Shown piece by piece: positions 1 through 55,867 of a stretch of DNA of 64,000 nucleotides. The position numbers and the translations under genes were made by a program. The stretch is from positions 14,115-78,114 of the forward strand of contig JBBDJH010000004.1 of the NCBI GenBank assembly GCA_040879985.1. Reading direction: 5' to 3'. The notes below the pieces were generated by a model. That model was not told the origin of the DNA. It was given only the letters and a program-made list of their open reading frames with translations, and ran no database searches. This stretch comes from Solirubrobacterales bacterium (lineage in GTDB: Bacteria > Actinomycetota > Thermoleophilia > Solirubrobacterales > 70-9). How positions within the stretch are numbered: position 1 is the stretch's first letter; the number at the start of each line of letters is the position of its first letter.

Positions 1-262
1 CCTCGCCGCCGAAGTCGGCGTGGCCGGGGGTGTCGATGATGTTGAGCTTGACGCCCTGGTAGTCGACGGTCGTGTTCTTGGCGAGGATCGTGATCCCCTT
101 CTCGCGCTCCAGGTCCATCGAGTCCATCACCCGCTCGGCGACATCCTGGCCCTTGCGGAAGGTACCGCTCTGCCAGAGCATCGCGTCGACCAGCGTCGTC
201 TTGCCATGGTCGACATGGGCAATGATCGCGATGTTCCGGATGTCGTCTCGGGTAGTGGTCAT
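1..262 (-). CDS. typA: Translational GTPase TypA/BipA, N-terminal 87 codons (gene continues past window start)
   Basis: Hand translation of the minus strand from ATG (262-260) gives [70 protein letters not shown]. It has G1 AHVDHGKT, G3 DTPGH and the BipA-type QSGTF/ERVMDS segment. It is absent from the ORF track because it runs off the edge. Confidence 0.85.
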
Positions 263-277
263 TTGGCGGGGCGAAGC

Positions 278-308
278 ATAAAAAGAGGCCCGCCGCGAGG
301 CGGGCCTC
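278..308 (-). terminator. Rho-independent terminator after cspA
   Basis: Perfect 10-bp stem GAGGCCCGCC/GGCGGGCCTC (285-294/299-308) with a 4-nt loop, followed on the minus strand by a TTTTTAT tract. It lies about 25 nt downstream of the cspA stop. Confidence 0.8.
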
Positions 309-332
309 TTTGCAGCTGAGAGCGGTTCGCGA

Positions 333-539
333 CTAAGCGGTCGGCTGAACGCTCGCGGCGGCCGGGCCCTTGGGGCCTTCTTCGGACTCGTAGCTCACTT
401 TGGAACCCTCGGTCAGGGACTTGAAGCCCTCACCCAGGATCGCGCTGTGATGAACGAAGACGTCCTTCGAGCCGTCATCGGGCGTGATGAACCCGTAGCC
501 CTTGTCGTCGCTGAACCACTTGACAGTTCCAGTTGGCAT
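333..539 (-). CDS. cspA: Cold-shock protein (CspA family)
   Basis: 68 aa reading [34 protein letters not shown], with RNP1 (KGYGFI) and RNP2 (VFVHH) cold-shock-domain motifs. Confidence 0.95.
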
Positions 540-780
540 TCAATTGCCTCCACTTCATGTGCTGCGAACGCGGCACATGCGGTGAAGCAACGACACGCGA
601 GCGCTAGACACGACTTTTGCCGGATCTACCGGCCTATCGCGGGCCACCGTAGCAGGATCGACGCCCCCGGTGCCTTAACCCGGGTCCACCGATCTCGTCG
701 GTTTGCGCCACCGCCCTCGAGCGCCTGCGCCCGTTGCCGCACCGACCCGGCCAGGCCCGCCAGCCCCGATCGCGGCCCTT

Positions 781-823
781 CCGGTGTGCTTTATGTGCCC
801 CAGAGACACATAAAGCACACCGG
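781..823. repeat. Perfect 17-bp inverted repeat with 9-nt loop in the cspA/protease divergent intergenic region
   Basis: CCGGTGTGCTTTATGTG-ccccagaga-CACATAAAGCACACCGG. It has an AT-rich interior inside a GC-rich context. Confidence 0.7.
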
Positions 824-875
824 AAGCCGCAATTGGGGGTTGAAGAACCGCGATGAGCGGTCGATACCTTAGGAA

Positions 876-3218: not shown

Positions 3219-3655
3219 CGGCGGAGTTCGCGCTGGAAGACGTCCTCGCCGATCGCGAGACGCCAGGGGCCATCGGCCGATTCCGTCGCGCGGAAGTCGC
3301 GGAAGTCGAAGGTGAGAATGGGAAGGCTGTGGCGCTCTGCGATCGCCATCACGCTGGCATCGACCAAACCGATCCCAAGCGAGGCGTACTTTCTGTCGAC
3401 CTCCACGGCCCGCCGCATCAGACCCGACGTCATGTAGGCAATCTCGTGCGAACCCCCCACTACCGTCTTCAGAAATCGGCGAGCCGCGTCGCCGCCGAGC
3501 CTATTGCGGGCCAGGTGGTCGACCTCGATCATCACGGGCGACGGTACGACGCCCATCCGACGCAGTCGGCGCAACGCCGTGGACGCCATCTGGTGGGCTG
3601 GATCTGACTTGTCAAGAGCCGAAACAAGCGGGCCGGTGTCAATCACGATCTGCAT
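3215..3655 (-). CDS. vapC: PIN-domain ribonuclease toxin (VapC-like)
   Basis: Trimmed to MQIVIDTGPLVSALD. Conserved PIN acidic residues are present (IDTG.., EVDHL, LVDASV, TFDFRDF). It overlaps the upstream antitoxin-like ORF by 17 nt. Confidence 0.8.
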   Translation of the reverse strand: MQIVIDTGPLVSALDKSDPAHQMASTALRRLRRMGVVPSPVMIEVDHLARNRLGGDAARRFLKTVVGGSHEIAYMTSGLMRRAVEVDRKYASLGIGLVDASVMAIAERHSLPILTFDFRDFRATESADGPWRLAIGEDVFQRELRR

Positions 3656-3914
3656 CGCCGGGCCCCTCCCCAGGGCCCCAGGGCTTGAGGCCGAGGTATT
3701 TCTCATTGTTGATGCCGAGGTCGGGGAGGCCACTCTCGCCGGCGCCGATGTAGTCGAGCGAAATCTCCTGCTCGTCCCCGCGTGCGCCCAACTCGATCAG
3801 GCGCACGATCGTGGCCGAGAACGACTCGCCCTCGCGGGCTCGCTCACGCACGAGCTCCTCGGCGTCATGGGGGATGTAGATCGTCCGTCGGGGCACAGCC
3901 TGAGCCTGAGTCAT
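3639..3914 (-). CDS. vapB: Antitoxin-like small protein (ribbon-helix-helix type, VapB-like)
   Basis: Trimmed to MTQAQAVPRRTIYIPHDAEELVRERAREGESFSATIVRLIELG (beta-strand plus two-helix pattern). It lies immediately upstream of, and overlapping, the PIN gene. Confidence 0.65.
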   Translation of the reverse strand: MTQAQAVPRRTIYIPHDAEELVRERAREGESFSATIVRLIELGARGDEQEISLDYIGAGESGLPDLGINNEKYLGLKPWGPGEGPGDADRD

Positions 3915-4016
3915 GTCAAGAGTATGAACGGGCCGATCATACCAATGGCACGCAGATCCAAAATCTTCCGCAACTTCAATCGCGCGGCTTTGCAACAACT
4001 GCCCAGCGCCCCCGGC

Positions 4017-6155
4017 TCAGCCCCGCAGGCGTTCGGCCAGTCCGGAGTAGCGGCTGCCGCTGTCGTCGCGGCGGATCGCCATCTCGAGCGCGGCGGGGTC
4101 GCCGATCAGGACGCAGTTGGTGCGGGCGCGGGTGATCGCCGTGTAGAGCAGCGGCCGGCTCAGCATGCGGGCGTGGGAGCGGTGGCAGACGGCGACGACG
4201 ACGGGGACCTCGCACCCCTGCGCCTTGTGGACCGAGATCGCGTAGGCGAGGCGCAGGGTCGCCGTCTCGCCGTAGGGGATGCTCAGCGCGGCGCCCTCGT
4301 CCGTGTCGACGAGGATCGCCTCCTCCCCCGGGTCGTCCTCGCGCAGGAAGACAATCGAGCCGTTCATCAGCCCCAGCTCGTGCGAGTTGCGGGTCTGGAT
4401 CAGCCGGTCGCCGATGCGGAAGCGCTCGCTCACCGCCGCCCGCCCGTCCGGGTTGAGCCGCGCCTGCAGGCGCTCGTTGAGCGCGTCGATCCCGACCGCC
4501 CCCTTGTACATCGGCGCCAGCACCTGCACCTCGCGGATCGGGTCGACGCCGAAGCTCGCCGGCGCCCGCTCGGCGACCACCTCGACCACGGTCTCCAGGG
4601 CGCGCTCCGGGCTCGGCCGGTCGATGAAGAAGAAGTCGTGGTCCTGGTCGCCCTGCGGCTGCAGGTGCGGCGGCCGGCCCTGGTTGATCTCGTGGGCGGC
4701 GGTGGTGATCATCGATCGCGCCGCCTGGCGGAAGATCTGGGTCAGCCGCACCACCGGGGCGACGCCGGCGGCGATCAGGTCCTCGAAGGGCTTGCCGGCG
4801 CCGATCGGCGGCAGCTGGTCGGCGTCGCCGACGAAGACGACGTGGGTCGTCTCGGCCAGGCCGCCGAGCAGGACCTCGATCAGGCGCAGGTTCAGCATCG
4901 AGGCCTCGTCGACGATCGCCAGCTCGGCGGGCAGCGGGTGGCCGGGCCGGTAGGCGGGCTCGCGCCCCGGCATCCACTCGAGCATCCGGTGGATCGTCTG
5001 CGCCTCGTGCCCGGTCGCCTCCTCGAGCCGGCGGGCGGCGCGGCCGGTCGGCGCGCAGAGCGCGATCGGGACGCCGGCCCGCTGGGCCTCGGCGACGATC
5101 GCCTTCGTGCAGGCGGTCTTGCCGACGCCGGGGCCGCCGGTGAGGACCGAGATCCGCGCCGCGAAGGCGCCGCGCACCGCCGCCCACTGCTCCTCGGTCA
5201 GCTCCGCCTCGTCCTCCACCCCGAGCGGCGGCGTCTCCCCCGGGTCGTGGTCGAGGTGGGGCTCGGCGGCGGCCCGGGCGGCCAGCGTCGCCGCGACGGC
5301 GACCTCGCCGGCGTGGGTCGGCTCGCGGTAGGCGCGCCCCTGGTCGAGCAGCAGGCCGCGCGCCTGGCCCGGCACGTCGGGGTCGGGCCGCAACCCGATC
5401 AGCTTCGCGGTGCGCTCGTTGAGCTCGTCCAGCGGCAGGTAGGCGTTGCCCTGCTGCTCGGCCTCGGAGAGGGCGAAGACCGCGGCCGCCTGGGCGCGCC
5501 GGTCGGACTCCGGCGGCACGTCGGCGGCGAGGGCGATCTTGTCGGCGCGGGCGAAGCCGACGCCGGCGACCTCGGTCAGCCGGTAGGGGTCCTCGTGCAG
5601 GACGGTCAGCGCCCGCTCGGCGAAGCGGGCGTGGATCGGCGCCGCCAGGTGGGCCAGCCCGTGCGGGGCCAGCTGCACGTGCAGGTCGCGGATCGCCCGC
5701 GAGGCGTGCCAGGACTCGGCCGCGGCGGCGGCCTGCGCGGCGCTGACCCCGCGCAGGTCGGCGAAGACGCCGGCCGGGTCGGCGGCGATCGCCCCCAGCA
5801 CCCCCTCGCCGTGCTCGTCGACGAGCCGCTCGGCGCGGGCCGGCCCGATGTGGCGCAGCGTCGTCAGGTAGGCGACCTGGCCGGCCCGGTCGGCCGGATC
5901 GAGCGGCAGCGCGCCGCGCGCCTTGAGCTGGCGCCCGTAGCGCGAGTGGGTCTGCCAGTCGCCGCTGACTTCGGCCCGGTCGCCGGCGCTCAGGTGGGCG
6001 ACCGGGCCGACCAGGGCAAAGCCCTCGCCGCTCTCGGCCTCCTGCACCTCGAGCACCGCGTAGCCGTCGTCCTCGGCGCTGAAGATGACGCCGAGCACCT
6101 CGACCGTGCCGGTGAACGCGGCCGCATCGGCGTCGAAGAGCGTCGCGGCATCCAT
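4017..6155 (-). CDS. recD2: RecD2-type ATP-dependent 5'-3' DNA helicase (RecD/TraA family)
   Basis: Walker A VLTGGPGVGKT, Walker B AIVDEASML, FVGDADQLPPIG, and C-terminal ISVHKAQG..TAITRAR. Start trimmed to MDAATLF (6155); the 149 upstream codons of the track ORF overlap the opposite-strand transporter gene. Confidence 0.85.
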   Translation of the reverse strand: MDAATLFDADAAAFTGTVEVLGVIFSAEDDGYAVLEVQEAESGEGFALVGPVAHLSAGDRAEVSGDWQTHSRYGRQLKARGALPLDPADRAGQVAYLTTLRHIGPARAERLVDEHGEGVLGAIAADPAGVFADLRGVSAAQAAAAAESWHASRAIRDLHVQLAPHGLAHLAAPIHARFAERALTVLHEDPYRLTEVAGVGFARADKIALAADVPPESDRRAQAAAVFALSEAEQQGNAYLPLDELNERTAKLIGLRPDPDVPGQARGLLLDQGRAYREPTHAGEVAVAATLAARAAAEPHLDHDPGETPPLGVEDEAELTEEQWAAVRGAFAARISVLTGGPGVGKTACTKAIVAEAQRAGVPIALCAPTGRAARRLEEATGHEAQTIHRMLEWMPGREPAYRPGHPLPAELAIVDEASMLNLRLIEVLLGGLAETTHVVFVGDADQLPPIGAGKPFEDLIAAGVAPVVRLTQIFRQAARSMITTAAHEINQGRPPHLQPQGDQDHDFFFIDRPSPERALETVVEVVAERAPASFGVDPIREVQVLAPMYKGAVGIDALNERLQARLNPDGRAAVSERFRIGDRLIQTRNSHELGLMNGSIVFLREDDPGEEAILVDTDEGAALSIPYGETATLRLAYAISVHKAQGCEVPVVVAVCHRSHARMLSRPLLYTAITRARTNCVLIGDPAALEMAIRRDDSGSRYSGLAERLRG

Positions 6156-6198
6156 GCCGTCGAGGCTAGTCAACCGACCCCGCAGCCACAATGCGGGC

Positions 6199-6900
6199 GT
6201 GGGCGAAGCGGTCCTCTTTGCGGTTGTTGCCTCGAGCGCGCTGCCGCTCGGCGCGCTGATCGCGGTCTGGCGCCCGCCGCCGCGCCAGGTCACCGCGGCG
6301 CTGCTCGGCTTCGCCTCCGGCGCCCTGATCACCGCGGTCGCCTTCGAGCTCTTCGAGAAAGCCTTCGTGCACGGCGGCGCCTGGCGCGCCGGGCTCGCCT
6401 TCTTCGCCGGGGCGACCGCCTTCATCCTCGTCGACGGCTGGCTCGAGCGGCGCCAGGCGCGCCAGCGGGCGCGCGGCGGCGTCGTCGGCCTCGCCCTGCT
6501 GGCCGGCGTGACGCTGGACGGGGTCCCGGAGAACCTCGCGATGGGAGTCGCCCTGCTCGAGGGCGGCGCCGTCACCCTGCTGGTGGCGATCTTCGCCTCC
6601 AACCTGCCGGAGGCGATCGTCGGCGCCGAGAAGATGCGCGAGGAACGCGGCGATCGCGAGATCGTCGCGATCTGGACCGCGACCGCGGGGCTGCTGGCGG
6701 TCGCGGTCGTCGTCGGCTACGTGGCGCTGCAGGGCGTCGGCGCGAGCGGCCTCGCCTGGCCGCTCGGCTTCGCCGCGGGCGCCGTGCTCGCCTCGTTAGC
6801 CGACACGCTGATGCCCGAGGCCTACGGCGAGGGAGGCCCGCCGGTCGCCTACGCAACCGCGCTCGGCTTCCTCACCTCGTTCCTGATCTCAGCAGCCTGA
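6199..6900 (+). CDS. ZIP-family divalent metal transporter (ZupT-like)
   Basis: Multi-pass membrane protein with the GVTLDGVPENLAMG and FASNLPEA motifs typical of ZIP permeases. The start is uncertain: I chose GTG 6199, but the ORF is open from 6085. Confidence 0.7.
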   Translation: MGEAVLFAVVASSALPLGALIAVWRPPPRQVTAALLGFASGALITAVAFELFEKAFVHGGAWRAGLAFFAGATAFILVDGWLERRQARQRARGGVVGLALLAGVTLDGVPENLAMGVALLEGGAVTLLVAIFASNLPEAIVGAEKMREERGDREIVAIWTATAGLLAVAVVVGYVALQGVGASGLAWPLGFAAGAVLASLADTLMPEAYGEGGPPVAYATALGFLTSFLISAA

Positions 6901-6907
6901 GCCGGGG

Positions 6908-6950
6908 GTGGTCGAGGTTTGGGTCGCATAGCGGTTCAAACCTCGACCAC
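6908..6950. repeat. Family-A palindromic element, copy 1 (loop inverted relative to copies 2 and 3)
   Basis: GTGGTCGAGGTTTG-ggtcgcatagcggttc-AAACCTCGACCAC. It lies between the convergent stops of the ZIP gene (6900) and the small Cys-rich ORF (6953). Confidence 0.85.
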
Positions 6951-6952
6951 GG

Positions 6953-7150
6953 TCATCGGCCGGGCGCCGGGCCGCCGGGCGGGGCGGGCGGCTCGTGGCC
7001 GCGGCACGCGAGTACCGGCAGCCGTGGGTAGCGCGGGTAGGCCGGGTCCTTGCGCGAGCGCATGCAGAGGCTGAAGACCGATCCCCGCGTGTTGGGGACG
7101 AGCTGCTGGTGGATGCAGTTGTCGCAGAGGCCGCGGCTCGCAGATCGCAC
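6953..7150 (-). CDS. Small Cys-rich hypothetical protein
   Basis: 65 aa with CDNC..(15)..C..(19)..C spacing (LCDNCIHQQLVPNTRGSVFSLCMRSRKDPAYPRYPRLPVLAC). The composition is not low-complexity, unlike the surrounding shadow ORFs. Confidence 0.4.
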   Translation of the reverse strand: MRSASRGLCDNCIHQQLVPNTRGSVFSLCMRSRKDPAYPRYPRLPVLACRGHEPPAPPGGPAPGR

Positions 7151-8589: not shown

Positions 8590-9591
8590 TCAGGCGCCGA
8601 CCGCGACGATCACGATGAACGACGTGTAGAGGGCGACCCAGCCGAGCACCGCGGGCAGGGCGAAGCGGTCGCGCCGGTGGAGGATCTCGTAGGCGAGCAG
8701 GCCGCCGGCGAGGCCGAGGCAGATCGAGATCGTCGCGTTGGTGGAGAGCTCCCAGTCGGTGAAGATCAGGCCGATCCCGATCGGGATCGTCGACTGGAAG
8801 ACCATCGCCCCGGTGATGTTGCCGAGCGCCAGCGAGTCCTTGCCTTCGCGGACCCAGAAGAAGCTGTTGACCTTCTCCGGCAGCTCGGTCGCCAGCGGGG
8901 CGAGGATCAGGGCGAGGACGAGCGCCTCGACGCCGATCGACTCGGCGATGTGGAGCAGTTCCTCGACGAAGAGGTGGGCGCCGCCGACCATCGTCCCCAG
9001 CCCGACGAGCAGCTGGATCGCGCAGAGCAGCAGGCTCGGGTCGGTGCGGCGCTCAGCGCGGCGCTCGAAGATCAGCGGGTCGAGCGTCGCGTGGTCCTGG
9101 ACCAGGCCTCCGGCGAGCAGGGTGCGGCGGACGTAGAAGAAGTAGGCGCAGATGACGACAATCCCGACCGGGATCCGCAGCGCGTCGGGCGCCCCCCAGG
9201 CCAGCGCCAGCGCGACCGCGAAGAAGAAGAGGAAGAAGAGCAGGTCGCGCTCCAGGGTCGGCTTGTGGGCTTTCAGCTCGAGCCCCTGCGCGCGCCGCTC
9301 GCGGTAGAGGTAGGCGAAGAGGCCGACCAGGCCCATCGCCAGGGTCGCGAGCAGGAAGGGGGCGCCGACGATCGCCCCGATCGCGACGTCTTCGGAGCCC
9401 TCGGCGGCGCTGAACAGCGCGACGACCGCGATCAGCGTCTCCGGCATCGCCGTGCCGACCGCGGCGAGCAGGCTGCCGACGGCGCCTTCGCCGAGCTGCA
9501 GCCGGTGGCCCATCCACTCGACCGCGTTGGTGAAGAGCAGCGCCCCGGCGAGGATCACCGCGAAGCTGAGGAACAGCAGGACGACGGTCAT
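8590..9591 (-). CDS. Na+/Ca2+ exchanger (CaCA family) membrane protein
   Basis: Two alpha-repeat-like segments (GSLLAAVGTAMPETLIA and GNITGAMVFQSTIPIGI) in a protein of about 10 TM helices. Confidence 0.85.
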   Translation of the reverse strand: MTVVLLFLSFAVILAGALLFTNAVEWMGHRLQLGEGAVGSLLAAVGTAMPETLIAVVALFSAAEGSEDVAIGAIVGAPFLLATLAMGLVGLFAYLYRERRAQGLELKAHKPTLERDLLFFLFFFAVALALAWGAPDALRIPVGIVVICAYFFYVRRTLLAGGLVQDHATLDPLIFERRAERRTDPSLLLCAIQLLVGLGTMVGGAHLFVEELLHIAESIGVEALVLALILAPLATELPEKVNSFFWVREGKDSLALGNITGAMVFQSTIPIGIGLIFTDWELSTNATISICLGLAGGLLAYEILHRRDRFALPAVLGWVALYTSFIVIVAVGA

Positions 9592-43251: not shown

Positions 43252-43551
43252 CTACTCCGCTTTGGCGGGAGCTTTCGAGTCGCTTGGCTTCGAATCCGAG
43301 CTCTTTGAGTCAGAGCTCTTCGAGTCAGAGGAGTCCTTTGAGCCCTCTGAAGAGCTTCCGTTGCTCCCGGTCTTCTTCTTCGCGTAGTCGGTGTTGTGGA
43401 AGCCGCTGCCCTTGAAGTGGATCGCCACCGGGTGGAGGACACGCTCGGCCGGGGCGCCGCACTCCTGGCACTCGGTGAGCGGCTCGTCGGCCATCCGCTG
43501 GATCACGTCGAAGACGTGCCCCTTGGCGCACTTGTACTCGTAGATCGGCAT
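43252..43551 (-). CDS. FmdB-family zinc-ribbon protein with Ser/Asp/Lys repeat tail
   Basis: Trimmed to MPIYEYKCAKGHVF..CQECGAP (CxxH..CxxC zinc ribbon). The tail is SSDSKSSDSKSSDSKPSDSK. Confidence 0.85.
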   Translation of the reverse strand: MPIYEYKCAKGHVFDVIQRMADEPLTECQECGAPAERVLHPVAIHFKGSGFHNTDYAKKKTGSNGSSSEGSKDSSDSKSSDSKSSDSKPSDSKAPAKAE

Positions 43552-43636
43552 GCGGCCGGGGATTATCGCAGTCGCCAAGCCAGGCGCCCGGCGACAGAGC
43601 GGCGGCGCTCCGGCTCCGCCCTATACGTTTCCTCCG

Positions 43637-45013
43637 ATGACCGCCCAGCCCGACCTGGCGACGATGGACGAGATCGTCGCCCTGTGCAAGCGGCGCGGCT
43701 TCGTCTTCCCCTCCTCGGAGATCTACGGCGGGCTCGGCTCGACCTACGACTACGGCCACTACGGGGTGCTGCTGAAGAACAACGTCAAGGCCGAGTGGTG
43801 GCGGGCGATGCTGCAGGAGCGTGACGACATCGTCGCGCTCGACTCGGCGATCCTGCAACACCCGCGGGTCTGGGAGGCCTCGGGCCACCTCGAGGGCTTC
43901 ACCGACCCGCTGGTCCAGTGCCTCGGCGAGTGCAAGCGGCGCTGGCGCGAGGACCATCTGCGCGAGGCGGTCGAGGCCGCGGGCGGCGACCCCGAGGCCG
44001 AGCTGCACTGCCCGGAGTGCGGCGGCGAGCTCTCGGAGCCGCGCCAGTTCAACCTGATGTTCGAGACCCACGTCGGCCCGGTCGCGGGCGAGGGCTCGGA
44101 GGTCTACCTGCGGCCGGAGACCGCGCAGGGCATCTTCATCAACTTCAAGAACGTGCTCGGCTTCGCCCGCAAGAAGCCGCCCTTCGGGATCGCCCAGATC
44201 GGCAAGTCGTTCCGCAACGAGATCACGCCGGGCAACTTCATCTTCCGCACGCGCGAGTTCGAGCAGATGGAGATGGAGTTCTTCGTCCCCCCCGCCGAGG
44301 CGGAAAAGTGGCACCAAGCCTGGATGGACGAGCGCGAGCGCTGGTACACGGAGCTCGGCATCCGCCCCGAGCTGCTGCGGGTCCGCGCCCACGGCGAGGA
44401 CGAGCTCTCGCACTACTCCTCGGCGACGAGCGACATCGAGTACCTCTTCCCGATCGGCTGGTCGGAGCTGGAGGGGATCGCCAACCGCGGCGACTTCGAC
44501 CTCAAACAGCACGCCGAGTTCAGCGGCGAGAAGCTCGAGTACTTCGACCAGCAGACGAAGGAGCGCTACACGCCGCACGTGATCGAGCCGGCCGCCGGCG
44601 CCGACCGCGCCACGCTCGCCTTCCTGGTCGACGCCTACGACGTCGAGGAGGTCGAGGGTCGCCCGCGCACGGTGCTGCGCCTGCACCCCCGCCTCGCCCC
44701 GGTCAAGGTCGCCGTCCTGCCCCTGCTCTCCAAGCAGGGCATGCCGGAGAAGGCGCGGGCGATCTTCGAGGAGGTCCGCCGCCGCGTCCCCGCCGAGTAC
44801 GACGAAGGCGGCAACATCGGCAAGCGCTACCGCCGCCAGGACGAGATCGGCACCCCCTGGGGGATCACCGTCGACCACCAGACGATGGAGGACGACACCG
44901 TCACCCTGCGCGACCGCGACTCCCTCGAGCAGACCCGAGTCCCGATCGAGGGCCTCGCCGACGAGCTGGCCAACCGCCTGGCACAGCCCTGGCAGAGCCC
45001 GAAGCTGGGCTGA
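43637..45013 (+). CDS. glyQS: Glycyl-tRNA synthetase (homodimeric class II, GlyQS)
   Basis: Trimmed to MTAQPDLATMDEIVALCKRRGFVFPSSEIYGG... Class II motifs ..FRNEITPG.. and ..EPAAGADR.. Confidence 0.95.
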   Translation: MTAQPDLATMDEIVALCKRRGFVFPSSEIYGGLGSTYDYGHYGVLLKNNVKAEWWRAMLQERDDIVALDSAILQHPRVWEASGHLEGFTDPLVQCLGECKRRWREDHLREAVEAAGGDPEAELHCPECGGELSEPRQFNLMFETHVGPVAGEGSEVYLRPETAQGIFINFKNVLGFARKKPPFGIAQIGKSFRNEITPGNFIFRTREFEQMEMEFFVPPAEAEKWHQAWMDERERWYTELGIRPELLRVRAHGEDELSHYSSATSDIEYLFPIGWSELEGIANRGDFDLKQHAEFSGEKLEYFDQQTKERYTPHVIEPAAGADRATLAFLVDAYDVEEVEGRPRTVLRLHPRLAPVKVAVLPLLSKQGMPEKARAIFEEVRRRVPAEYDEGGNIGKRYRRQDEIGTPWGITVDHQTMEDDTVTLRDRDSLEQTRVPIEGLADELANRLAQPWQSPKLG

Positions 45014-45074: not shown

Positions 45075-45121
45075 AAATCACTCAGTACATTGAGTAAAAT
45101 CACTCAGTGTCGTGAGTGATT
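45075..45121 (+). promoter_or_regulatory. AT-rich direct/inverted repeat cluster overlapping the start codon of the DUF4143 ATPase gene (candidate operator)
   Basis: The 12-nt direct repeat AAATCACTCAGT occurs at 45075 and 45097. The 9-bp-arm inverted repeat AATCACTCA-gtgtcg-TGAGTGATT (45098-45121) spans the GTG at 45112. Confidence 0.3.
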
Positions 45122-46287
45122 CGCAGACATACAGGCGACCGATCCTCGCCGTGCTCACCGCCCGGCTGGCGGAGGACGCCACGCGGATCCAGGTGGTGAG
45201 CGGGCCGCGGCAGGTCGGCAAGACGACCGTCGTGCGGCAGGCCCTGCGAATCGTGGACCAGCCGAGCCACTACGCCAGCGCTGACGATCCGGCCCTGCGC
45301 GACGCAGCCTGGCTCGAGGCGCAATGGGAAGAGGGGCGGCGGCTGGCGAGGGATCGACGCGGCGGCGCGATCCTTGCCGTCGACGAGATCCAGAAGGTCA
45401 CCGGCTGGGCCGAGACGGTCAAGCGCCTCTGGGACGAGGATCGCCGCGGCGAGCTTCCCCTCCGGGTCGTCCTGCTCGGCTCGGCGGCGCTGCTCGTCCA
45501 GCGCGGCCTCGGCGAGAGCCTGACCGGGCGCTTCGAGCTGATCCGGGCGCCGCACTGGTCCTTTGGCGAGATGCGCGACGCCTTCGGGCTGACTTTCGAC
45601 GAGTTCATCTACTTCGGTGGCTATCCGGGCTCGGCGGGATTGATCGAGGACGAGCCGCGCTGGGCTGCCTACGTGCTCGACTCGATCGTCGAGACGACGA
45701 TCTCCCGCGATCTGCTGCTGCTCACGCGGGTGGACAAGCCGGCGCTGCTGCGCAGCCTCTTCCGCCTCGTCTGCGACTACTCCGGTCAGATCGTCTCCTA
45801 CCAGAAGCTGACCGGCCAACTCCAGGACGCCGGAAACACCACCACCCTCGCCCACTATCTCGACCTCCTCGCGGCAGCCGGACTCGCCCTCGGGCTCGAG
45901 AAGTTCGCGTCCGGGAAGGTGCGGCAGCGGCGTTCGACGCCGAAGCTGATCGCGCTCGACACGGCGCTCGTCTCGGCTACCTCGGGCAGGACGTACGCCG
46001 AGGCCCGCGCCGATCGCGAGCACTGGGGACGTTTGGTCGAGACCGCCGTCGGCGCCCATCTCGTCGCGACTCGCGATCCCCGGGCCGAGATCCTCTACTG
46101 GCGCAACCGGGGCAAGGAGGTCGATTTCGTCGTCGAACGCGGCAAGCAGCTGACCACGATCGAGGTGAAGAGCGGCCGACACGGCGGCGGGCTGCCGGGC
46201 ATGGCAGCCTTCGAGGAGTCGTTCGGCCCCGCCCGCAAGCTCCTGGTCGGCGGCGACGGGACTCCGCTCGTGGAGTTCCTCACGTGA
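45112..46287 (+). CDS. AAA_14 P-loop ATPase fused to a DUF4143 (PD-(D/E)xK-like) domain
   Basis: Walker A SGPRQVGKTT, Walker B ILAVDEIQ, and a C-terminal nuclease-like motif GKEVDFVVERGKQLTTIEVKSG. Confidence 0.85.
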   Translation: MSDSQTYRRPILAVLTARLAEDATRIQVVSGPRQVGKTTVVRQALRIVDQPSHYASADDPALRDAAWLEAQWEEGRRLARDRRGGAILAVDEIQKVTGWAETVKRLWDEDRRGELPLRVVLLGSAALLVQRGLGESLTGRFELIRAPHWSFGEMRDAFGLTFDEFIYFGGYPGSAGLIEDEPRWAAYVLDSIVETTISRDLLLLTRVDKPALLRSLFRLVCDYSGQIVSYQKLTGQLQDAGNTTTLAHYLDLLAAAGLALGLEKFASGKVRQRRSTPKLIALDTALVSATSGRTYAEARADREHWGRLVETAVGAHLVATRDPRAEILYWRNRGKEVDFVVERGKQLTTIEVKSGRHGGGLPGMAAFEESFGPARKLLVGGDGTPLVEFLT

Positions 46288-46531: not shown

Positions 46532-49500
46532 TCAGGTTAGCTCTGGCAGACGCGCCGAACGCCTGTCGTTGTCACCGGTCTTCGGGAGGGTCTTTATCCT
46601 CCGCGCAATCTCCCGATCAGACCAAGGCTCGCCAAAGTAGTACGCCACGGTCAAGGCCGCCCGAGCTCGATCAGCCCTCCGCTCGAGTTTTCGATCGAAG
46701 ATGTCGCTCTGATTTTCGAGAAACGAGCAGAGTTCGACGTCGGGCGCACCAAAGGGCGCCAGCGACCGTTCAACGGGGGAAAGACACGTGATTGCCCACG
46801 CAGCCTGCAACTGAGCCTGAGGGCACCAACTATGCCGCCAGAGCGCGAGGAGCGCCGGGAAGACCCTGAGTCGATCCTCGATATCGATCAAATCCAAGCG
46901 CCCGACCCAGGCCAAAGCCGACACCGCCGCGAATGCGACGTAAGGTCGGCCGATCTCGCATAGCTTCGTGAGCTGGCCAGCCCACATTCGCATCGGTTCG
47001 AGCATAGTCGGGACACCGACCCACCCCTCCTCCCAGAGCTGGCGCCCCCACACTGCTGCTTCCATCGCCGCCGCCGCCGCGGCGCCCTCATCGTCCGATT
47101 GGATCGCCTTGCCAATCAGTTGTGCCCGTGCGGCCTCCGGGAATGCGCTCGGCAGGCGGCTTTCGAGACAGCTCGCATAAACGTGCGCGAATTCCGCGAA
47201 GTGCGGTCTGGAATCGTCTCGGTAGCCAGCCTCCACCGTTGCCCTGAACGCATCGCCGTACCGACCCTCGAGAATCTCGACGACGAGCTCCTCGATTTCG
47301 GGATCGGGCTCGCCGGAAAGGCGACCGAAGGCAAAGGCGGCATCACTCACGTGCCCAGGAGGCATTTGGACCTCGTCCGCCAAGGCCCTGCCAAGAAGGC
47401 GCTTGGCGTGCGTAGGTGAGGACGGATCGAGCGCCTCCCTCCCTGAGCAGAGGATTGCGGCAATCACATCTCCGGCAGAGCGCCCAGCCAATACGTTCAC
47501 CAGGGTTAGGACTTCAAACCACTGCGGATCTGAAACGTGAGACGCTAGTCGACCCGCCAAGCGATCCCCGTCACGGTGACCACTGTAAAACCCCTCCACG
47601 AGGGCCAAGGCGGCTAGATACTCCTGAAACGTAAGGTGACGGAACTCGTAGACTGGGACCAGCCTGCCTCGTTCCTCGACATGCCCCGTCATGATCAGCA
47701 AGCTGCTCCTACCCTCGATTCGCTCTACAAACTTCACCACCGACGTCCGTGCGAATCCGAGCACCTCGGGCATCTGGCTGCGGGCCTCATTCAACAAGTC
47801 AGTTAGTTCGACCGCGCTGACGCTCTGGACGCCTCGCTCGGTGAGCGAATGAGCGACAAATGCCAGCTGTGGAATCGCCTCGTCTTGGGCTATTGGCTCA
47901 TAAGCTGCAACATTCCACGTCATCAGCAGCACCTCGATGGCCTTCTCGTACAGGACCGTACGCTTACGGGGAAGATCGCCAACCCATCTCTTCACTAGCA
48001 ACAGGGTGGTCAGCAATAGGGGGTTCCTTGCCAGACGCCTGACCCTGTCCGTGGCCACAATCGTCTGGGCCAGCTCCTCCGCTTCTCCGGCAACTTTCGG
48101 CGAACGCCCAACAACCGTCGCATGCCATGCCTTCGTAAGCTGGTGAATGTCTGTGTCTACAAACTCGGCCAACCTATACCACGTGCAGATCGACGACAAG
48201 GCACCGGCCACGCTACGGAATCCTGGCTCCCTAGAAGTGACTAGCAACCCGACGTTTGGATACACCGACAGAAACGTCCTCATCTTCCGAACGAACGCCA
48301 GCCGATTTCCGGCATCGGAGACCTCGTCCAACCCATCTATCAACAACAGGATCTGTCCGCTCTGGAGAGCGTTGGCGATTAGTTCCGCGAAGCTTTCCGC
48401 CAACTCTGGGAACTCCCCCCTTCGTGGCGTGTCGTCAAGGATTTCGCGAAAAGACATCTCACGCTGATCGGTACCCAGATCGCGGCAGCGAATCAACAGT
48501 GGTAGCCAGCCTCGATCAGGCAACTCATCGTTGACACGATCTCGATGCGACTCGTCGACGTATGCAACTGCCAGTCGCTTGATCAAGGTCGACTTTCCTG
48601 AGCCCGGCGCACCGAGCACCGCCAAGCGGCGCGAGTGAGTCAGCACCCACCCGATCGACTCGGGCTCCCCCGCTCCCTCCTCCCGGCCGTCCCACCCGGC
48701 GGTCTCCCGCCGACCCCCGAAGGTTGCACCGCTCCCCTCCTCCAGCCGTTCCACCCTAAGGGGCACATATAGATCTTCCAGGGCTATTCGCTTCACACCG
48801 GCATCCTCGTCAGCCGGCAAGCCCTCCAGCGTGATGTCTCCAAGCTCAGCCATGAGATAGTCGCGATATCGCCTCTCAGCCACCCTGGTCGAATCGCGAT
48901 GTTTCGTCTCCTTGGGCGCTAGATAGCCCAGATCGCCCAGCGTCGCCCCAGTCACACCGTCCGAATATGCAGAGAACCGCTCCGCTATGCCCGGTGAGAG
49001 TGGTTGCCCGTCTGCATGAACAAGCGAAAAATAGGTTGGAGCGTGATCACGCTCCAGGACGGACAGCCAAATCCATCCCAGCGCATGGCCAACAAGCTCA
49101 GGCGGCCTGACAACAAGCGTGTCCAACTTCGATTCGGCCATCAGGCCGCCCACGATCTCGCCCACCCTTTGCGGTGACACCACAGTCAATCCAGCAACGA
49201 GTTGATGCTGGGCGTCGAGGCCGTCGAGGCAGACAAAGCGAGGGCTGCTGAACCCTGCCTCCTGCTCCATGGCGGCTTCGGTAAAGCCACTCAGCGAGAT
49301 GAAGTAGCCCTGGACGGCATCCTCGCCTTTCGCACTTTCCTCTGCCTGAAGCACCCCCGCAAACTTGTTCAGATCCGCACCACCAATCGGATTCTTCGTC
49401 GCCTTACACTCGGCGATTGCATATTTTGGCTCGACTCGATGCCGAGCAACAACATCTACCTCTCTTCCCGCTTTCTGGATGTTGAGTCGTGGGTCCTCGT

Positions 49501-49582
49501 ACCCCAAGGCCAAGAACACGTCGGCCACGAGCCGGGAGAACAGGCTGCCTTTGATGTTGCTCTCACGGGCCAGAAGTCGCAT
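46532..49582 (-). CDS. STAND NTPase: N-terminal Mrr-like PD-(D/E)xK nuclease domain + NACHT + C-terminal alpha-helical repeat region
   Basis: Trimmed to MRLLARESN.. (the upstream 47 codons overlap the AlkZ-like gene end). Nuclease motif GREVDVVA..AIAECKAT. NACHT motifs: Walker A GAPGSGKST, Walker B LLLIDGLDEV, LVTSREPGF, NPLLLTTLL, FRHLTFQEYLAA. Confidence 0.85.
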   Translation of the reverse strand: MRLLARESNIKGSLFSRLVADVFLALGYEDPRLNIQKAGREVDVVARHRVEPKYAIAECKATKNPIGGADLNKFAGVLQAEESAKGEDAVQGYFISLSGFTEAAMEQEAGFSSPRFVCLDGLDAQHQLVAGLTVVSPQRVGEIVGGLMAESKLDTLVVRPPELVGHALGWIWLSVLERDHAPTYFSLVHADGQPLSPGIAERFSAYSDGVTGATLGDLGYLAPKETKHRDSTRVAERRYRDYLMAELGDITLEGLPADEDAGVKRIALEDLYVPLRVERLEEGSGATFGGRRETAGWDGREEGAGEPESIGWVLTHSRRLAVLGAPGSGKSTLIKRLAVAYVDESHRDRVNDELPDRGWLPLLIRCRDLGTDQREMSFREILDDTPRRGEFPELAESFAELIANALQSGQILLLIDGLDEVSDAGNRLAFVRKMRTFLSVYPNVGLLVTSREPGFRSVAGALSSICTWYRLAEFVDTDIHQLTKAWHATVVGRSPKVAGEAEELAQTIVATDRVRRLARNPLLLTTLLLVKRWVGDLPRKRTVLYEKAIEVLLMTWNVAAYEPIAQDEAIPQLAFVAHSLTERGVQSVSAVELTDLLNEARSQMPEVLGFARTSVVKFVERIEGRSSLLIMTGHVEERGRLVPVYEFRHLTFQEYLAALALVEGFYSGHRDGDRLAGRLASHVSDPQWFEVLTLVNVLAGRSAGDVIAAILCSGREALDPSSPTHAKRLLGRALADEVQMPPGHVSDAAFAFGRLSGEPDPEIEELVVEILEGRYGDAFRATVEAGYRDDSRPHFAEFAHVYASCLESRLPSAFPEAARAQLIGKAIQSDDEGAAAAAAMEAAVWGRQLWEEGWVGVPTMLEPMRMWAGQLTKLCEIGRPYVAFAAVSALAWVGRLDLIDIEDRLRVFPALLALWRHSWCPQAQLQAAWAITCLSPVERSLAPFGAPDVELCSFLENQSDIFDRKLERRADRARAALTVAYYFGEPWSDREIARRIKTLPKTGDNDRRSARLPELT

Positions 49583-49605
49583 AGACGGAACAATATTGCG
49601 ATTAG

Positions 49606-50634
49606 TTAGGGAGCGGTCAGGAAGCGGGCGATGTCGGCGGCGTCGACCTCCAGTGCGGCCGCGACCGCGGCGGGCAGGCGCTCGAGCGGCTGCAGGTTCA
49701 CCTTGCCGGCTGGGAAGCCCCACCTGGCGACGGCGCGTCCGCCCGCCATCGCGAACGGGTGGAAGATTCCGTTGCGGGTGACCAGGCTCGTGTGGCGCCC
49801 GATCACGTCTTCGCGCGAGGTCCAGCCGAGTAGGACCGGGTCAAAGGCGCCGAGCAGCCGCGGGGGTGGGATATCCCCGTCTGCGGGACGCTTCTTCAGC
49901 CGCACCAGCCCGCCCTCCCCCTCCTCCAGCTCGGCGGCAATCGCCGCCAGCCCGGCGCGCGCGTCGCGCAACGGCAGGCCGGCCCACCTGGCGAGATCGC
50001 GGTCGGTCGCCGGTTGGTGACCGACCAGGTAGCGACGCGCCAGCTCGGCCAGCGCGACATCCCGCTCGATCGCCGCTGCCTCGCCGAGCCACTCGCGCGT
50101 CAACACGTAGGCGTGCTGCTTGCCGATCATCGGGCCGCGCACGACGAGCCCGCGCACCGCGGCGAGAAAGAGCAGGTGGATCAGCGCCTGGCCCTCGGTC
50201 GGCACGCCGGCGGAGTCGAGTCGCTCGCGCAGCTGCTGCCGCGGCAGCGGCCCGTCGTCGGCGAGGGCCCGCTCGATCGTCTTCAGGGCCAGCTCCGCCA
50301 CCGCCTCGCCTACCCCCTCCTGGCGTAGGCGCCGCTTGCAGGAGGTGAACAACGGCGGCGCGGTCAGCGCCTGCAGCAGCGGGTAGTCCTCGCTGCGCAC
50401 AAGGTGCAGCGTGCCCCGGTTGAGCCAGGTGACGACCAACTCCCGTCCTGCCAGCGCCCGCTCGACATCAGCCGCGCTCAAGCCCTCGGTCCGAGCGCGG
50501 ACCGCGAGCCGGAACCCGCGCGGGTCCTGCCCCTGCACAGCGAGCAGGCGCTCGGCGACAGCGACGGCGTCAGGCAGCGGCGGGCCAGAGAGACCCTGCG
50601 CCGTGAGGCGCTCGGCGAGGATGGAGTCTGGCAT
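49606..50634 (-). CDS. Winged-helix DNA glycosylase-like protein (AlkZ/YcaQ, DUF1006 family)
   Basis: MPDSILAERLTAQGLSG..VAERLLAVQGQDPRG..LVVTWLNRGTLHLV matches the family N-terminus, including a Q-x-Q motif (QGQ). Confidence 0.7.
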   Translation of the reverse strand: MPDSILAERLTAQGLSGPPLPDAVAVAERLLAVQGQDPRGFRLAVRARTEGLSAADVERALAGRELVVTWLNRGTLHLVRSEDYPLLQALTAPPLFTSCKRRLRQEGVGEAVAELALKTIERALADDGPLPRQQLRERLDSAGVPTEGQALIHLLFLAAVRGLVVRGPMIGKQHAYVLTREWLGEAAAIERDVALAELARRYLVGHQPATDRDLARWAGLPLRDARAGLAAIAAELEEGEGGLVRLKKRPADGDIPPPRLLGAFDPVLLGWTSREDVIGRHTSLVTRNGIFHPFAMAGGRAVARWGFPAGKVNLQPLERLPAAVAAALEVDAADIARFLTAP

Positions 50635-50742
50635 CGACCGGAATCATCCCGATCGGTGACCGACAGGGTGCTATGGGTAACTGACATGCAACGTCGGTGA
50701 CATCGGATGTCGGTTATGTGGGATGTCGGTAAGCTCTTGGGC

Positions 50743-52110
50743 ATGTTCGTCAACCGCCGTGAAGAGCTGGGGGCGTTGAACGCCTGGTGGGACCGGGCGG
50801 GCGCCGCGCTGGGGCTGGTCTGGGGACGGCGCCGGGTTGGCAAGACCTCGCTGCTAGAGGAGTTTGCCCGCGACAAGCGCGCGATCTTCCACACCGGCGC
50901 CGGCCGGCCGGCCGGCGACGAGCTGCGGATGCTCAGCGAGAGCGCCGGGCAGGTTGCCAAGTTCGGGGCGCGCGATCTCGGCGAGCGACCCTTCGCCGAT
51001 TGGGACGACGCCCTCGACGCGCTCGCGGCGGCGGCCACCCGCGAGCGGCTGTTGCTCGTGATCGACGAGTTCCCCGACTTGGCCGCCGGCAGCCCCGAGC
51101 TGCCGGGCGTGCTGCGCGCCTTCTGGGATCGCGCTCAGGGCAAGACCAAGCTGCGCATCCTCGTCTGCGGCTCCGCCGTGCGCACAATGGAGGCCCTGCA
51201 GGAGGAGCGGGCGCCCCTCTATGGGCGCTTCGACCTCAGCCTGCTCCTGCACCCGTTCCGACCGCACGAGGCGAGCGCGATGCTGAAGGGCCTCGATCCC
51301 GCCGACAAAGCGCTCGTCTGGGGCCTCGTCGGCGGCGTGCCGCTCTACCTGAACTGGTGGGACAGCGAGCGCAGCGTGAAGCAAAACCTGCTGCGGCTGG
51401 CCTGCACCCCGGGTGGCCGACTGCTCGACGAGGGCAGGCTCGTGCTCGCGACCGAAGGCGACCTCGGCGGCCTCGGTGGGCTGGCCCTGCGGGCGATCGC
51501 CTCCGGCCGCACCCGGCACAACGAGATCGAGCAGGCGATCGGGTCGGATCCCAGCCGCGTGCTCGAGCGCCTGGTCGAGCTGCGCCTGGTCGAGCGGCTT
51601 GTCCCGGTCACCGAGAACCCGGCCAGAACGCGTCGTCGCATCTACCGGATCGCGGACAATTTCCTCGCCTTCTGGCTCGGGGTCCTCGATCGCCATCGTT
51701 CCGCGATCAGCCGAGGCCTGGGTGGACAGATTCTCTCGGTCCTGACCGAGCAGCTGGACGACCACATGGGCGACCGCTGGGAGGCAGCCTTCCGGCAGCA
51801 CCTGCTGCGGCTGGCGGCGGGCGGTGAGCTCGGCGAGCGGATCGTCGACATCGGCCGCTGGTGGCAGGACGCCCCGCCGGTCGAGATCGATGCGGTGGCG
51901 CTTGCCGGGCGCAGCAGGGAGGCCGTGCTTCTCGGCGAGGCGAAGTGGGCACGCAGGGCGGATGGCACGGCGCTCAGAGCCGGGCTGGAAGCCAAGGCGA
52001 CGGCGTTGCCGGCCCTGGCCGACGATGTCTCCTACGCGATCGCGGCTCGCGACCAGGTCAAGGGTGGCGACGGCGTGCTGCCGATCACCGCCGCCGACAT
52101 CTTCGGCTGA
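50743..52110 (+). CDS. Archaeal-type P-loop ATPase fused to a DUF234 (PD-(D/E)xK-like) domain
   Basis: Start moved to MFVNRREEL (the typical family N-terminus). Walker A GRRRVGKTS, Walker B LLVIDEFP, and C-terminal EIDAVALAG..VLLGEAKWA. Confidence 0.8.
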   Translation: MFVNRREELGALNAWWDRAGAALGLVWGRRRVGKTSLLEEFARDKRAIFHTGAGRPAGDELRMLSESAGQVAKFGARDLGERPFADWDDALDALAAAATRERLLLVIDEFPDLAAGSPELPGVLRAFWDRAQGKTKLRILVCGSAVRTMEALQEERAPLYGRFDLSLLLHPFRPHEASAMLKGLDPADKALVWGLVGGVPLYLNWWDSERSVKQNLLRLACTPGGRLLDEGRLVLATEGDLGGLGGLALRAIASGRTRHNEIEQAIGSDPSRVLERLVELRLVERLVPVTENPARTRRRIYRIADNFLAFWLGVLDRHRSAISRGLGGQILSVLTEQLDDHMGDRWEAAFRQHLLRLAAGGELGERIVDIGRWWQDAPPVEIDAVALAGRSREAVLLGEAKWARRADGTALRAGLEAKATALPALADDVSYAIAARDQVKGGDGVLPITAADIFG

Positions 52111-55196: not shown

Positions 55197-55867
55197 ATGA
55201 GTCGTATGCGCCCCGAGCAGGCAAGGAAATGGATCAGCGAACCCCGCTTCAACGGATATCGCAAGGCGGTCGCCGATCAGAGTCACGAGTCGGCGGTGGC
55301 CCTGTATCTATGGAACGCGGAAGTTTCGCGGCCTACCTCGGAGTCCTTCACCACGTCGAGGTATTGCTCCGCAACGCCATCGACCAGCAGTTTCCCGCCA
55401 CAGACGCCGATCACGTCGCTTCGATCTGCGACACGGACGTCTGGCTGACGGATCCGGCATTCCTCGAGGATCAAGGCCGAGAAAAGGTCAACGACGCGAT
55501 CAGGCGACTGGTCGGCGAAAACCGAAGGCCGACGCGGGGTCGTCTGGTTGCCTCGCTGACACTGGGCTTTTGGACGGCTCTCTTCTCGGGGCGCTACGAG
55601 GACCTCTGGCGGTCGCATCTCGTCCAGGCATTCCCGAACGGCGGCGGACGGCGCAGTGAGGTCAGGGGAGCCCTAGCCCGCATTCTCCAGCTGAGAAACC
55701 AGATCGCCCACCACGAAGCGATTTTCGCCCGTGACCTCGCCAAGGATCATGCGCATTTACTGAGCGTCGCCGGTTTGATCGACCCCGAGGCGCAGCGGTA
55801 TATCGCGAAGCATTCAAGGGTGGTGGCACTGTTTCCCCGTAGACCTGACCTTTTGCTTGACCGGTAA
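55197..55867 (+). pseudogene. Abi_2 (AbiD/AbiF-like) abortive-infection family gene interrupted by a -1 frameshift near 55328
   Basis: Frame a (55197-) reads ..KWISEPRFNGYRKAV..AVALYLWNAEVS. Frame b (55229-55867) continues AAYLGVLHHVEVLLRNAID..LTLGFWTALF..ILQLRNQIAHHEAIF. Joined, they give a full-length Abi_2 pattern. Confidence 0.65.

Follow-up and report, generated by a model that had tools for sequence, protein, structure and literature searches.

A Mrr-NACHT protein with an armadillo/HEAT-like C-terminus from Solirubrobacterales: a candidate stand-alone bacterial NLR-related immune protein

Bacterial proteins related to the nucleotide-binding leucine-rich repeat receptors (NLRs) correspond, in prokaryotes, to the inflammasome sensors of animals. 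Here we analysed one such protein, encoded in a 64,000-nucleotide stretch of a Solirubrobacterales genome (GenBank assembly GCA_040879985.1, contig JBBDJH010000004.1, positions 14,115 to 78,114; hereafter the window, with positions counted from its first letter). The gene, at 46532..49582 on the minus strand (1016 amino acids plus the stop codon), encodes a Mrr-type nuclease, a mid domain, a NACHT module and an armadillo (ARM)/HEAT-like alpha-solenoid. With a probability of roughly 70%, we read its product as a stand-alone bNACHT immune protein of the clade-2 group of Kibby et al. (2023), acting as a ligand-activated nuclease that aborts infection.

The closest described layout is found in that clade. 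Kibby et al. list in clade 2 the protein WP_157567192.1 from Hymenobacter sp. HMF4947, with Mrr_cat at 18..133 and NACHT at 240..737, and further entries pairing Mrr_cat or a restriction endonuclease (REase) with NACHT from Kibdelosporangium aridum (WP_125728006.1), Planctomycetes (KAF0246040.1) and Deltaproteobacteria. The Mrr_cat+NACHT entries share the layout and domain bounds of the window protein (Mrr ~16-133, NACHT ~233-737), although overall identity is only ~37%, and the published table annotates neither the mid domain nor the C-terminal solenoid. The copy in Hymenobacter ginkgonis HMF4947 (L031; loci and proteins carry our own L and P numbers) has Pfam Mrr_cat at 21-133 and NACHT. It also matched all four domain hidden Markov models (HMMs) that we cut from our conservation alignment A1 of 103 full-length homologues (Mrr 148 bits, mid 92, NACHT 521 and C-terminus 70). 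The first-pass annotation of the window, made from the sequence without database searches, had said that this domain combination would need placing among the known clades. It is already present in Table S1 of Kibby et al. under clade 2; the architecture is catalogued, and the gene adds one member to a known kind of bNACHT. No functional data on these clade-2 Mrr_cat/REase+NACHT entries were found in the literature.

The closest experimentally handled relative is bNACHT37 (Enterobacter roggenkampii WP_023325860.1), a clade-2 protein of SIR2_2+NACHT+HEPN architecture (Kibby et al.). Over the NTPase core, the window protein shares 40% identity (E 2e-51) with the bNACHT37 seed fragment of Lee et al., and the pre-NACHT helix region also aligns (28%, E 8e-9). 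bNACHT37 differs in carrying a SIR2 effector rather than Mrr and in having no mid domain. bNACHT20, which is also of clade 2 and has yet another effector, was active in Lee et al.

Better characterised are bNACHT25 and bNACHT32 of E. coli, which belong to clade 6 and have an REase+NACHT+NCH1 architecture (bNACHT25 has 752 amino acids). The nuclease residue D48 of bNACHT25 is needed for defence, winged-helix histidine mutants of bNACHT25/32 are hyperactive and toxic, and phage is sensed through the host chaperone DnaJ. These proteins share with ours a one-gene logic, namely an N-terminal PD-(D/E)xK DNA nuclease (DNase), a NACHT module and a helical C-terminal domain. They differ in NACHT clade and in sensor, which is NCH1 in bNACHT25 and an ARM/HEAT solenoid of ~316 residues here. 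In BLASTP against bNACHT25 only the P-loop region aligned, at ~24%; the nuclease and all other regions did not. Orthology to bNACHT25/32 was rejected because the alignment is confined to the P-loop region (24%). As a pairwise comparison, and not a tree with the published set, the figures are 40% to the clade-2 bNACHT37 core versus 24%, in the P-loop only, to clade-6 bNACHT25.

Avs4 and Avs8A likewise pair a Mrr-family nuclease with a NTPase of the STAND type (signal transduction ATPases with numerous domains) and a helical sensor; in Avs8A (PD-lambda-4) the Mrr nuclease is switched on by major capsid protein together with ATP and Mg2+. Their NTPases lie outside the NACHT clade, and their sensors are unrelated to ours by sequence. 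In the animal NLRs NOD2, NLRC4 and NLRP3 the NACHT signature motifs and the conserved winged-helix histidine recur, but at only 11-15% sequence identity, with leucine-rich repeats as sensors and CARD/PYD adaptors, not an enzyme, as effectors.

The four modules of the protein

The minus-strand open reading frame (ORF) extends over 46532..49723 when read from its first GTG, and the 1016-residue product starts at the ATG at 49582. This translation is identical (100% match) to the NCBI protein P0001 from a metagenome-assembled genome (MAG), annotated 'NACHT domain-containing protein [Solirubrobacterales bacterium]', and an independent Logan assembly also yields the Mrr-NACHT locus. The frame is intact, with the full 1016 residues, no frameshift and all family-invariant residues kept. 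Every motif string that had been read by eye is present in the translation (GREVDVVA, AIAECKAT, GAPGSGKST, LLLIDGLDEV, TSR, NPLLL and FRHLTFQEYLAA). An AlphaFold2 model built with the A1 alignment had a mean predicted local distance difference test score (pLDDT) of 88.6 and a predicted template modelling score of 0.80.

The Mrr-type PD-(D/E)xK effector domain occupies residues 1-120 (49223..49582, minus strand). Pfam Mrr_cat (PF04471) matched residues 10-112 with an E-value of 7.8e-11 (42.6 bits against a cut-off of 21), and the domain was modelled as an alpha/beta fold with pLDDT ~90. The catalytic motif D43 ... E58-x-K60 (GREVDVVA ... AIAECKAT; 49403..49456, minus strand) is conserved, with E41, D43, E58, C59 and K60 invariant in the 103 homologues. 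An N-terminal restriction-endonuclease-like module with a D..E-x-K pattern had been proposed from the letters alone; the above-threshold Mrr_cat match and the invariance of D43, E58 and K60 support that proposal. The domain is predicted to be a metal-dependent DNase. Its identity to the nearest homologues is 61-75%.

A mid domain (residues 121-225; 48908..49222, minus strand) separates the nuclease from the NACHT module; the first-pass annotation did not list it, and it makes a fourth module. It is delimited by the confident AlphaFold2 model, as helices with a three-stranded sheet, and by its own domain HMM. No Pfam family matched it even at E<=10. The mid-domain HMM matched every Mrr-bearing homologue and none of the complete SIR2-type homologues. 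The domain evolves fast, with 36-60% identity to the nearest homologues.

The NACHT module (residues 226-700; 47483..48907, minus strand) consists of a pre-NACHT helix, the P-loop NTPase, and helical and winged-helix subdomains. Pfam NACHT (PF05729) matched residues 318-488 over profile positions 1-165 of 167, with an E-value of 4.6e-12 (46.5 bits, cut-off 26.7). Invariant in the alignment are G327, G329 and K330 of the Walker A motif (GAPGSGKST; 48587..48613, minus strand), all five residues D416-G-L-D419-E420 of the Walker B motif (LLLIDGLDE; 48323..48349, minus strand), S450 and the sensor-1 residue R451 (TSR), and the winged-helix H649 (FRHLTFQEYL). The complete NACHT NTPase that had been claimed is thus confirmed by the Pfam match above threshold and by the invariant Walker A, Walker B and sensor-1 residues. 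According to Kibby et al., a D[GAS]hDE Walker B signature separates NACHT from other STANDs, and D416-G-L-D-E420 fits it exactly. By its position in the motif, rather than by superposition, H649 corresponds to H443 of NLRC4. Identity to the nearest homologues across the module is 61-76%.

The overall fold is NLR-like. In a Foldseek search with the AlphaFold2 model the top 35 PDB matches were all animal NLRs (E 2e-11 to 8e-7), led by NOD2, NLRC4 and NLRP3 at E ~1e-11, with the others belonging to the NLRP family. A sequence search of the PDB with the single protein gave no match.

The C-terminal module (residues 701-1016; 46535..47482, minus strand) was defined from the model and a family profile. 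Modelled apart, residues 675-1016 formed an all-helical solenoid with pLDDT 90.2. Foldseek returned only generic matches to designed armadillo proteins and importin-alpha (E ~1e-4), with low template modelling scores of 0.3-0.39, and the family profile matched the importin-alpha ARM repeats by sequence with an E-value of 3.6e-6. Pfam HEAT_2 was sub-threshold here (E 0.07), and in precomputed annotation it is present in a few homologues. From these matches we assign the C-terminus to the ARM/HEAT class, at class level only and with no specific solved relative. Of the earlier description of this region, the alpha-helical repeats stand (over ~340 residues), and the statement that they could not be assigned to any family does not.

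A phmmer search with the C-terminal domain alone against 1.84 billion representative proteins recovered only 117 clusters. Their full-length members have ~1000-1100 residues (two are longer) and match at the C-terminal end, so that the solenoid is private to the family. No other module is as divergent (32-55% identity to its nearest homologues), and it evolves faster than the nuclease and NACHT domains; the mid domain is also fast. We presume the solenoid to be the sensor.

By analogy with bNACHT25/32, Avs4 and Avs8A, we propose an antiphage role in which ligand-induced oligomerisation would lead to DNA cleavage and abortive infection. At rest, the NACHT module, bound to adenosine diphosphate, and the solenoid would keep the protein monomeric and the Mrr nuclease off. 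During infection by a phage or another mobile element the solenoid would bind a trigger, for which a conserved phage protein is the likeliest candidate. The NACHT module would then exchange its nucleotide and oligomerise, bringing the Mrr domains together, and the assembled PD-(D/E)xK nuclease would cut DNA indiscriminately, so that infection would be aborted and the cell lost. The protein had already been put forward as a candidate single-gene, NLR-like antiphage protein, and it keeps that candidacy on the strength of the HMM matches, the invariant residues, the NLR-like model and the 40% identity to the bNACHT37 core.

The solenoid could instead sense infection indirectly, by monitoring a host factor that infection perturbs, with the same effector logic downstream. 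Such guard-type sensing has precedents in the REase-NACHT proteins bNACHT25/32, which need DnaJ, and in Avs7, which incorporates EF-Tu; alleles held at one chromosomal slot across related genomes, as described below, would also suit co-evolution with a host partner. We nevertheless consider it unlikely for this protein. Its sensor is unrelated to NCH1 of bNACHT25 (identity is ~24% around the P-loop and nothing else aligns), the 32-55% divergence of the solenoid fits an arms race with a phage ligand better than a conserved host chaperone, and direct binding to phage proteins is what most tested Avs families show. Direct ligand binding by the solenoid remains our preferred reading.

Family distribution and effector exchange

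A word-indexed protein search gave 1165 matches; the best 120 of these were almost all of 1000-1090 residues with Mrr_cat+NACHT; Acidobacteriota and an archaeal Methanogaster MAG are represented. In the GTDB species representatives, a scan turned up 553 relatives. Among those loci with enough flanking sequence for comparison, the domain HMMs detected all four modules in 26, so that at least 26 species, from a wide range of phyla, have a four-module copy. The Actinomycetota are represented by Solirubrobacterales, Spirillospora, Streptosporangium, Rhodococcus rhodnii and Acrocarpospora, and further four-module loci are found in Acidobacteriota, Planctomycetota, Chlorobiaceae, Bacteroidota, Gemmatimonadaceae, Myxococcota and Pseudomonadota. 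The seed set of Lee et al. 2026 contains the B. cereus protein WP_255289543.1, which, in a reading by eye and not a computed comparison, resembles the family consensus. The family is therefore probably included in their phylogeny.

A second tier of genome matches (L040-L052; Enterobacter mori, Pseudomonas, Rhizobium and others) has a homologous NACHT module, at ~500 bits, and in most of them the C-terminal HMM matches weakly. Those that were scanned carry a SIR2_2 N-terminus and no mid domain. The exchange of effectors on a common chassis is characteristic of immune STANDs. The occurrence of Mrr and of SIR2 on one homologous NACHT chassis is, as judged from sequence, such a swap, and it speaks for the chassis as the sensor, with the N-terminus as an effector that can be exchanged.

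The effector swap also bears on a different interpretation of the nuclease. The Type IV enzyme Mrr has Mrr_cat as its catalytic domain, and the window protein could be an NTP-dependent Type IV-like enzyme whose Mrr domain recognises and cuts modified foreign DNA, with the NACHT module and repeats serving only as a scaffold for regulation or assembly, and with neither sensing of a protein ligand nor abortive infection. Besides the Mrr_cat domain itself, the N-terminus gave weak PADLOC-DB 2.0 matches to mREase_IV (E 0.0098) and PDC-S02 (E 8e-5), and the conserved domain that follows the nuclease (residues 121-225) could bind DNA. Yet these matches are marginal and cover the catalytic core only; a P-loop fragment similarly gave a marginal match to mad8. 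NACHT NTPases are switches and not translocases, the fold matches autoinhibited NLRs, and in sister proteins the effector on the NACHT chassis is SIR2, which does not act on DNA. We think it very improbable that the protein is an enzyme of the Type IV kind, and continue with the immune receptor as the preferred reading.

A variable slot beside glyQS

The gene is compositionally atypical. Its G+C content is 60.4%, compared with 70.1% for the window, and both of the lowest 1-kb G+C bins of the window fall within it. The deficit lies at third codon positions, where its G+C (GC3) is 0.68 versus 0.87-0.96 in nine surrounding genes; the value for the first two positions is ordinary (0.566), and low GC3 is even across all four domains (0.63-0.71). 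Windowed G+C and GC3 agree with the initial observation that the gene is AT-richer and that the break coincides with its borders. The contrast first estimated by hand is real, at about 10 points, with the neighbours at 68-73.5% rather than well above 70%. Across the family, the G+C of the gene lies below that of the flanks in 21 of 26 loci (mean difference -7 points, largest -23).

The backbone of the window around the gene runs LCP - glyQS - [DUF4143 ATPase] - [Mrr-NACHT] - AlkZ-like - [DUF234 ATPase] - FKBP - SBF - AMP-binding, with variable genes in brackets. One conserved border of the variable slot is glyQS (43550..45013, plus strand; NCBIfam glycine--tRNA ligase, E 4e-194), which also borders it in L002, L004 and L088 and in the NACHT-less loci L090-L098. 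The other is the AlkZ-like gene (49606..50634, minus strand; Pfam E 6e-55), which lies 23 nucleotides upstream of the Mrr-NACHT gene and is co-directional with it. Co-transcription of the two is possible; the AlkZ-like gene is not part of the system. The spacer (49583-49605) is rich in A+T (ctaatcgcaatattgttccgtct) and lacks a purine run resembling a Shine-Dalgarno sequence. In the L002 orthologue it is equal in length and largely different in sequence. A promoter and terminator scan around the gene was uninformative.

Three related contigs carry divergent alleles in the slot, namely P0002 (L002, 68% identity to the window protein), P0009 (L004/L005, a Solirubrobacterales MAG, 53%) and P0007 (L088, 53%), each tail-to-tail with glyQS on the AlkZ/FKBP side. 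A fourth (P0025 in L006, a contig of a Solirubrobacterales MAG, ~52%) lies between AlkZ and glyQS sequence. All slot alleles are intact (1006-1032 residues). Backbone proteins are 66-92% identical across the slot genomes (glyQS 89-92%, AlkZ 71-80%, FKBP 66-67%), the NACHT divergence ranks the genomes in the same order, and the slot orthologues are also low in GC3 (0.79-0.81). The shared order of divergence and the depressed GC3 of the orthologues argue against a very recent arrival.

In L006 two glyQS 3' ends (5897-6178 and 9274-9405) bracket the NACHT gene, with 137 of 137 nucleotides identical between the copies, as far as the contig end. The position of this allele between identical glyQS ends hints at a homologous-recombination anchor at glyQS. 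We did not rely on the duplication as proof of cassette integration, since an artefact of the k141 assembly is equally likely.

A glyQS-anchored metagenome scan found the Mrr-NACHT gene in 0 of the 10 closest loci (glyQS 82-93% identical), most of which keep their LCP, AlkZ and FKBP neighbours. In L098 the gap between glyQS and AlkZ is 13 bp and holds no NACHT gene; other NACHT-less slots hold DUF4234 membrane genes, a 650-residue secreted protein or nothing but the DUF4143 ATPase. In a tree built by neighbour joining, which carries no support values, the window protein pairs with that of L002, and the pair is sister to P0003, P0004 and P0005. P0003 and P0005 sit among Replic_Relax, resolvase, IS66 and helix-turn-helix genes. 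The remaining slot alleles fall in separate subclades. The synteny of L002, L004 and L088 had suggested a vertically inherited, core-like gene; this was dropped because the gene is absent from the ten closest relatives, and it is undercut further by the mobile-context alleles that fall inside the slot-allele group of the tree. Absence from the closest relatives together with mobile-context sister alleles marks the gene as accessory and horizontally mobile, in a variable slot. The recent horizontal acquisition proposed at first is only partly supported. The accessory, mobile status and the polymorphic slot hold, whereas divergent alleles (52-68%) in or beside the slot on at least four contigs make a recent arrival in this genome no more than possible.

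A small DUF4234-type membrane gene (MAYEMKIRGTE...) occupies the slot in most relatives (L089, L090, L093, L096, L088 and L006). The window has none, and L091 and L094 have instead the secreted protein of ~650 residues, with a signal peptide.

Two candidate functional linkages were rejected, an AlkZ-NACHT pair that the 23-nucleotide spacing had suggested and a link to the flanking ATPases. AlkZ stands beside glyQS in NACHT-less relatives, is absent beside the homologues in other phyla, and is separated from the NACHT gene by other genes in L004 and L088. Equally, neither flanking ATPase gene occurs in any of 80 family loci. As AlkZ and both ATPases are not conserved partners elsewhere, the single-gene claim of the first-pass annotation stands, with no neighbour conserved outside the lineage.

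The same slot raises the question of whether the gene is an active immune gene here at all. It might be of foreign origin and silent or in decay, or it might serve a mobile element, for example through addiction or exclusion, and its GC3, the mobile-element contexts of its sister alleles, the unrelated cargo in the slot of relatives and the lack of a recognisable promoter or Shine-Dalgarno sequence would all fit. We judge this distinctly unlikely, given that the ORF of 1016 residues is full-length, free of frameshifts and retains every invariant residue, that all slot alleles are intact, and that the window contains no integrase, transposase, att-like sequence or flanking repeat around the gene.

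Several results nevertheless count against our reading of the protein as a phage-triggered immune receptor. We found no tested Mrr+mid+NACHT+ARM member in the literature, and the 'Phage Defense' field of bNACHT37 is empty in Table S2 of Kibby et al. No model in PADLOC-DB 2.0 recognises the protein (there was no Avs model match), and the NCBIfam antiphage model EruA (NF058535) scored 28.4 bits over residues 397-553 against an equivalog cut-off of 1000 bits. Sequenced phages and plasmids hardly contain the family: annotated phages gave no family match, and annotated plasmids gave one, of the SIR2 type, on an Agrobacterium plasmid. Slot cargo elsewhere is mostly non-defence (DUF4234 proteins, the secreted protein, a major facilitator superfamily transporter and a glyoxalase), and the 23-nucleotide spacer has no recognisable promoter or ribosome-binding site.

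Other genes of the window and meaning for the family

Two neighbours of the Mrr-NACHT gene match PADLOC defence candidates, PDC-S01 in the adjacent gene and PDC-S27 two genes away, and this context counts in favour of the antiphage role. The first, an AAA_14+DUF4143 ATPase between glyQS and the NACHT gene (45112-46287, plus strand), matches PDC-S01 over its full length (E 1.7e-162). It is not in the slot of L002, L004 or L088 and stands alone beside glyQS in L095 (75% identity). A 21-nucleotide tandem direct repeat (AAATCACTCAGT..., 45075-45117) overlaps its start codon and could be an operator. The second, an ATPase_2+DUF234 ATPase between AlkZ and FKBP (50707-52110, plus strand), matches PDC-S27 (E 1e-31). 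It is absent from this position in L002, L004 and L088, and L104 and L106 have copies with 69% identity downstream of glyQS.

The second low-G+C patch of the window (1-kb bin at 0.617) coincides with a 212-residue ORF (55229-55867, plus strand; GC3 0.68) in a place where relatives have a lipase gene. The ORF carries HEPN-like RNxxAH motifs ('LLRNAI', 'LRNQIAHHE') and matches PD-T4-5 (E 1e-4), AbiD (E 0.02) and Pfam Abi_2 (E 0.026) weakly; it is possibly an AbiD/F-like abortive-infection gene. The left end of the window (1-4000) is also somewhat low in G+C (0.65-0.68) and includes a subtilase gene (Peptidase_S8 with a fervidolysin-like prodomain; 876-3218, plus strand). A 1175-residue ORF (3504-7031) had no Pfam match and includes the most GC-rich 1-kb bin of the window (0.79 at 5001-6000). 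Rfam gave no match in the window.

To our knowledge, the trigger is unknown for most bacterial NLR-related proteins. The value of the present locus is modest: it supplies a four-module architecture for defence-finder models and a candidate for trigger screening, and it leaves the current understanding of the bacterial NLR mechanism unchanged. It belongs to a family of more than 1000 homologues across many phyla that current PADLOC models do not detect, and it provides a clean example of effector swapping, Mrr versus SIR2, on one NACHT chassis. Tentatively, and with considerable doubt, the family may represent a phylum-spanning group of Avs-like receptors with a private solenoid for a trigger new to STAND sensors, the alleles of which may, in Solirubrobacterales, swap as single-gene cassettes anchored by homologous recombination at the highly conserved glyQS.

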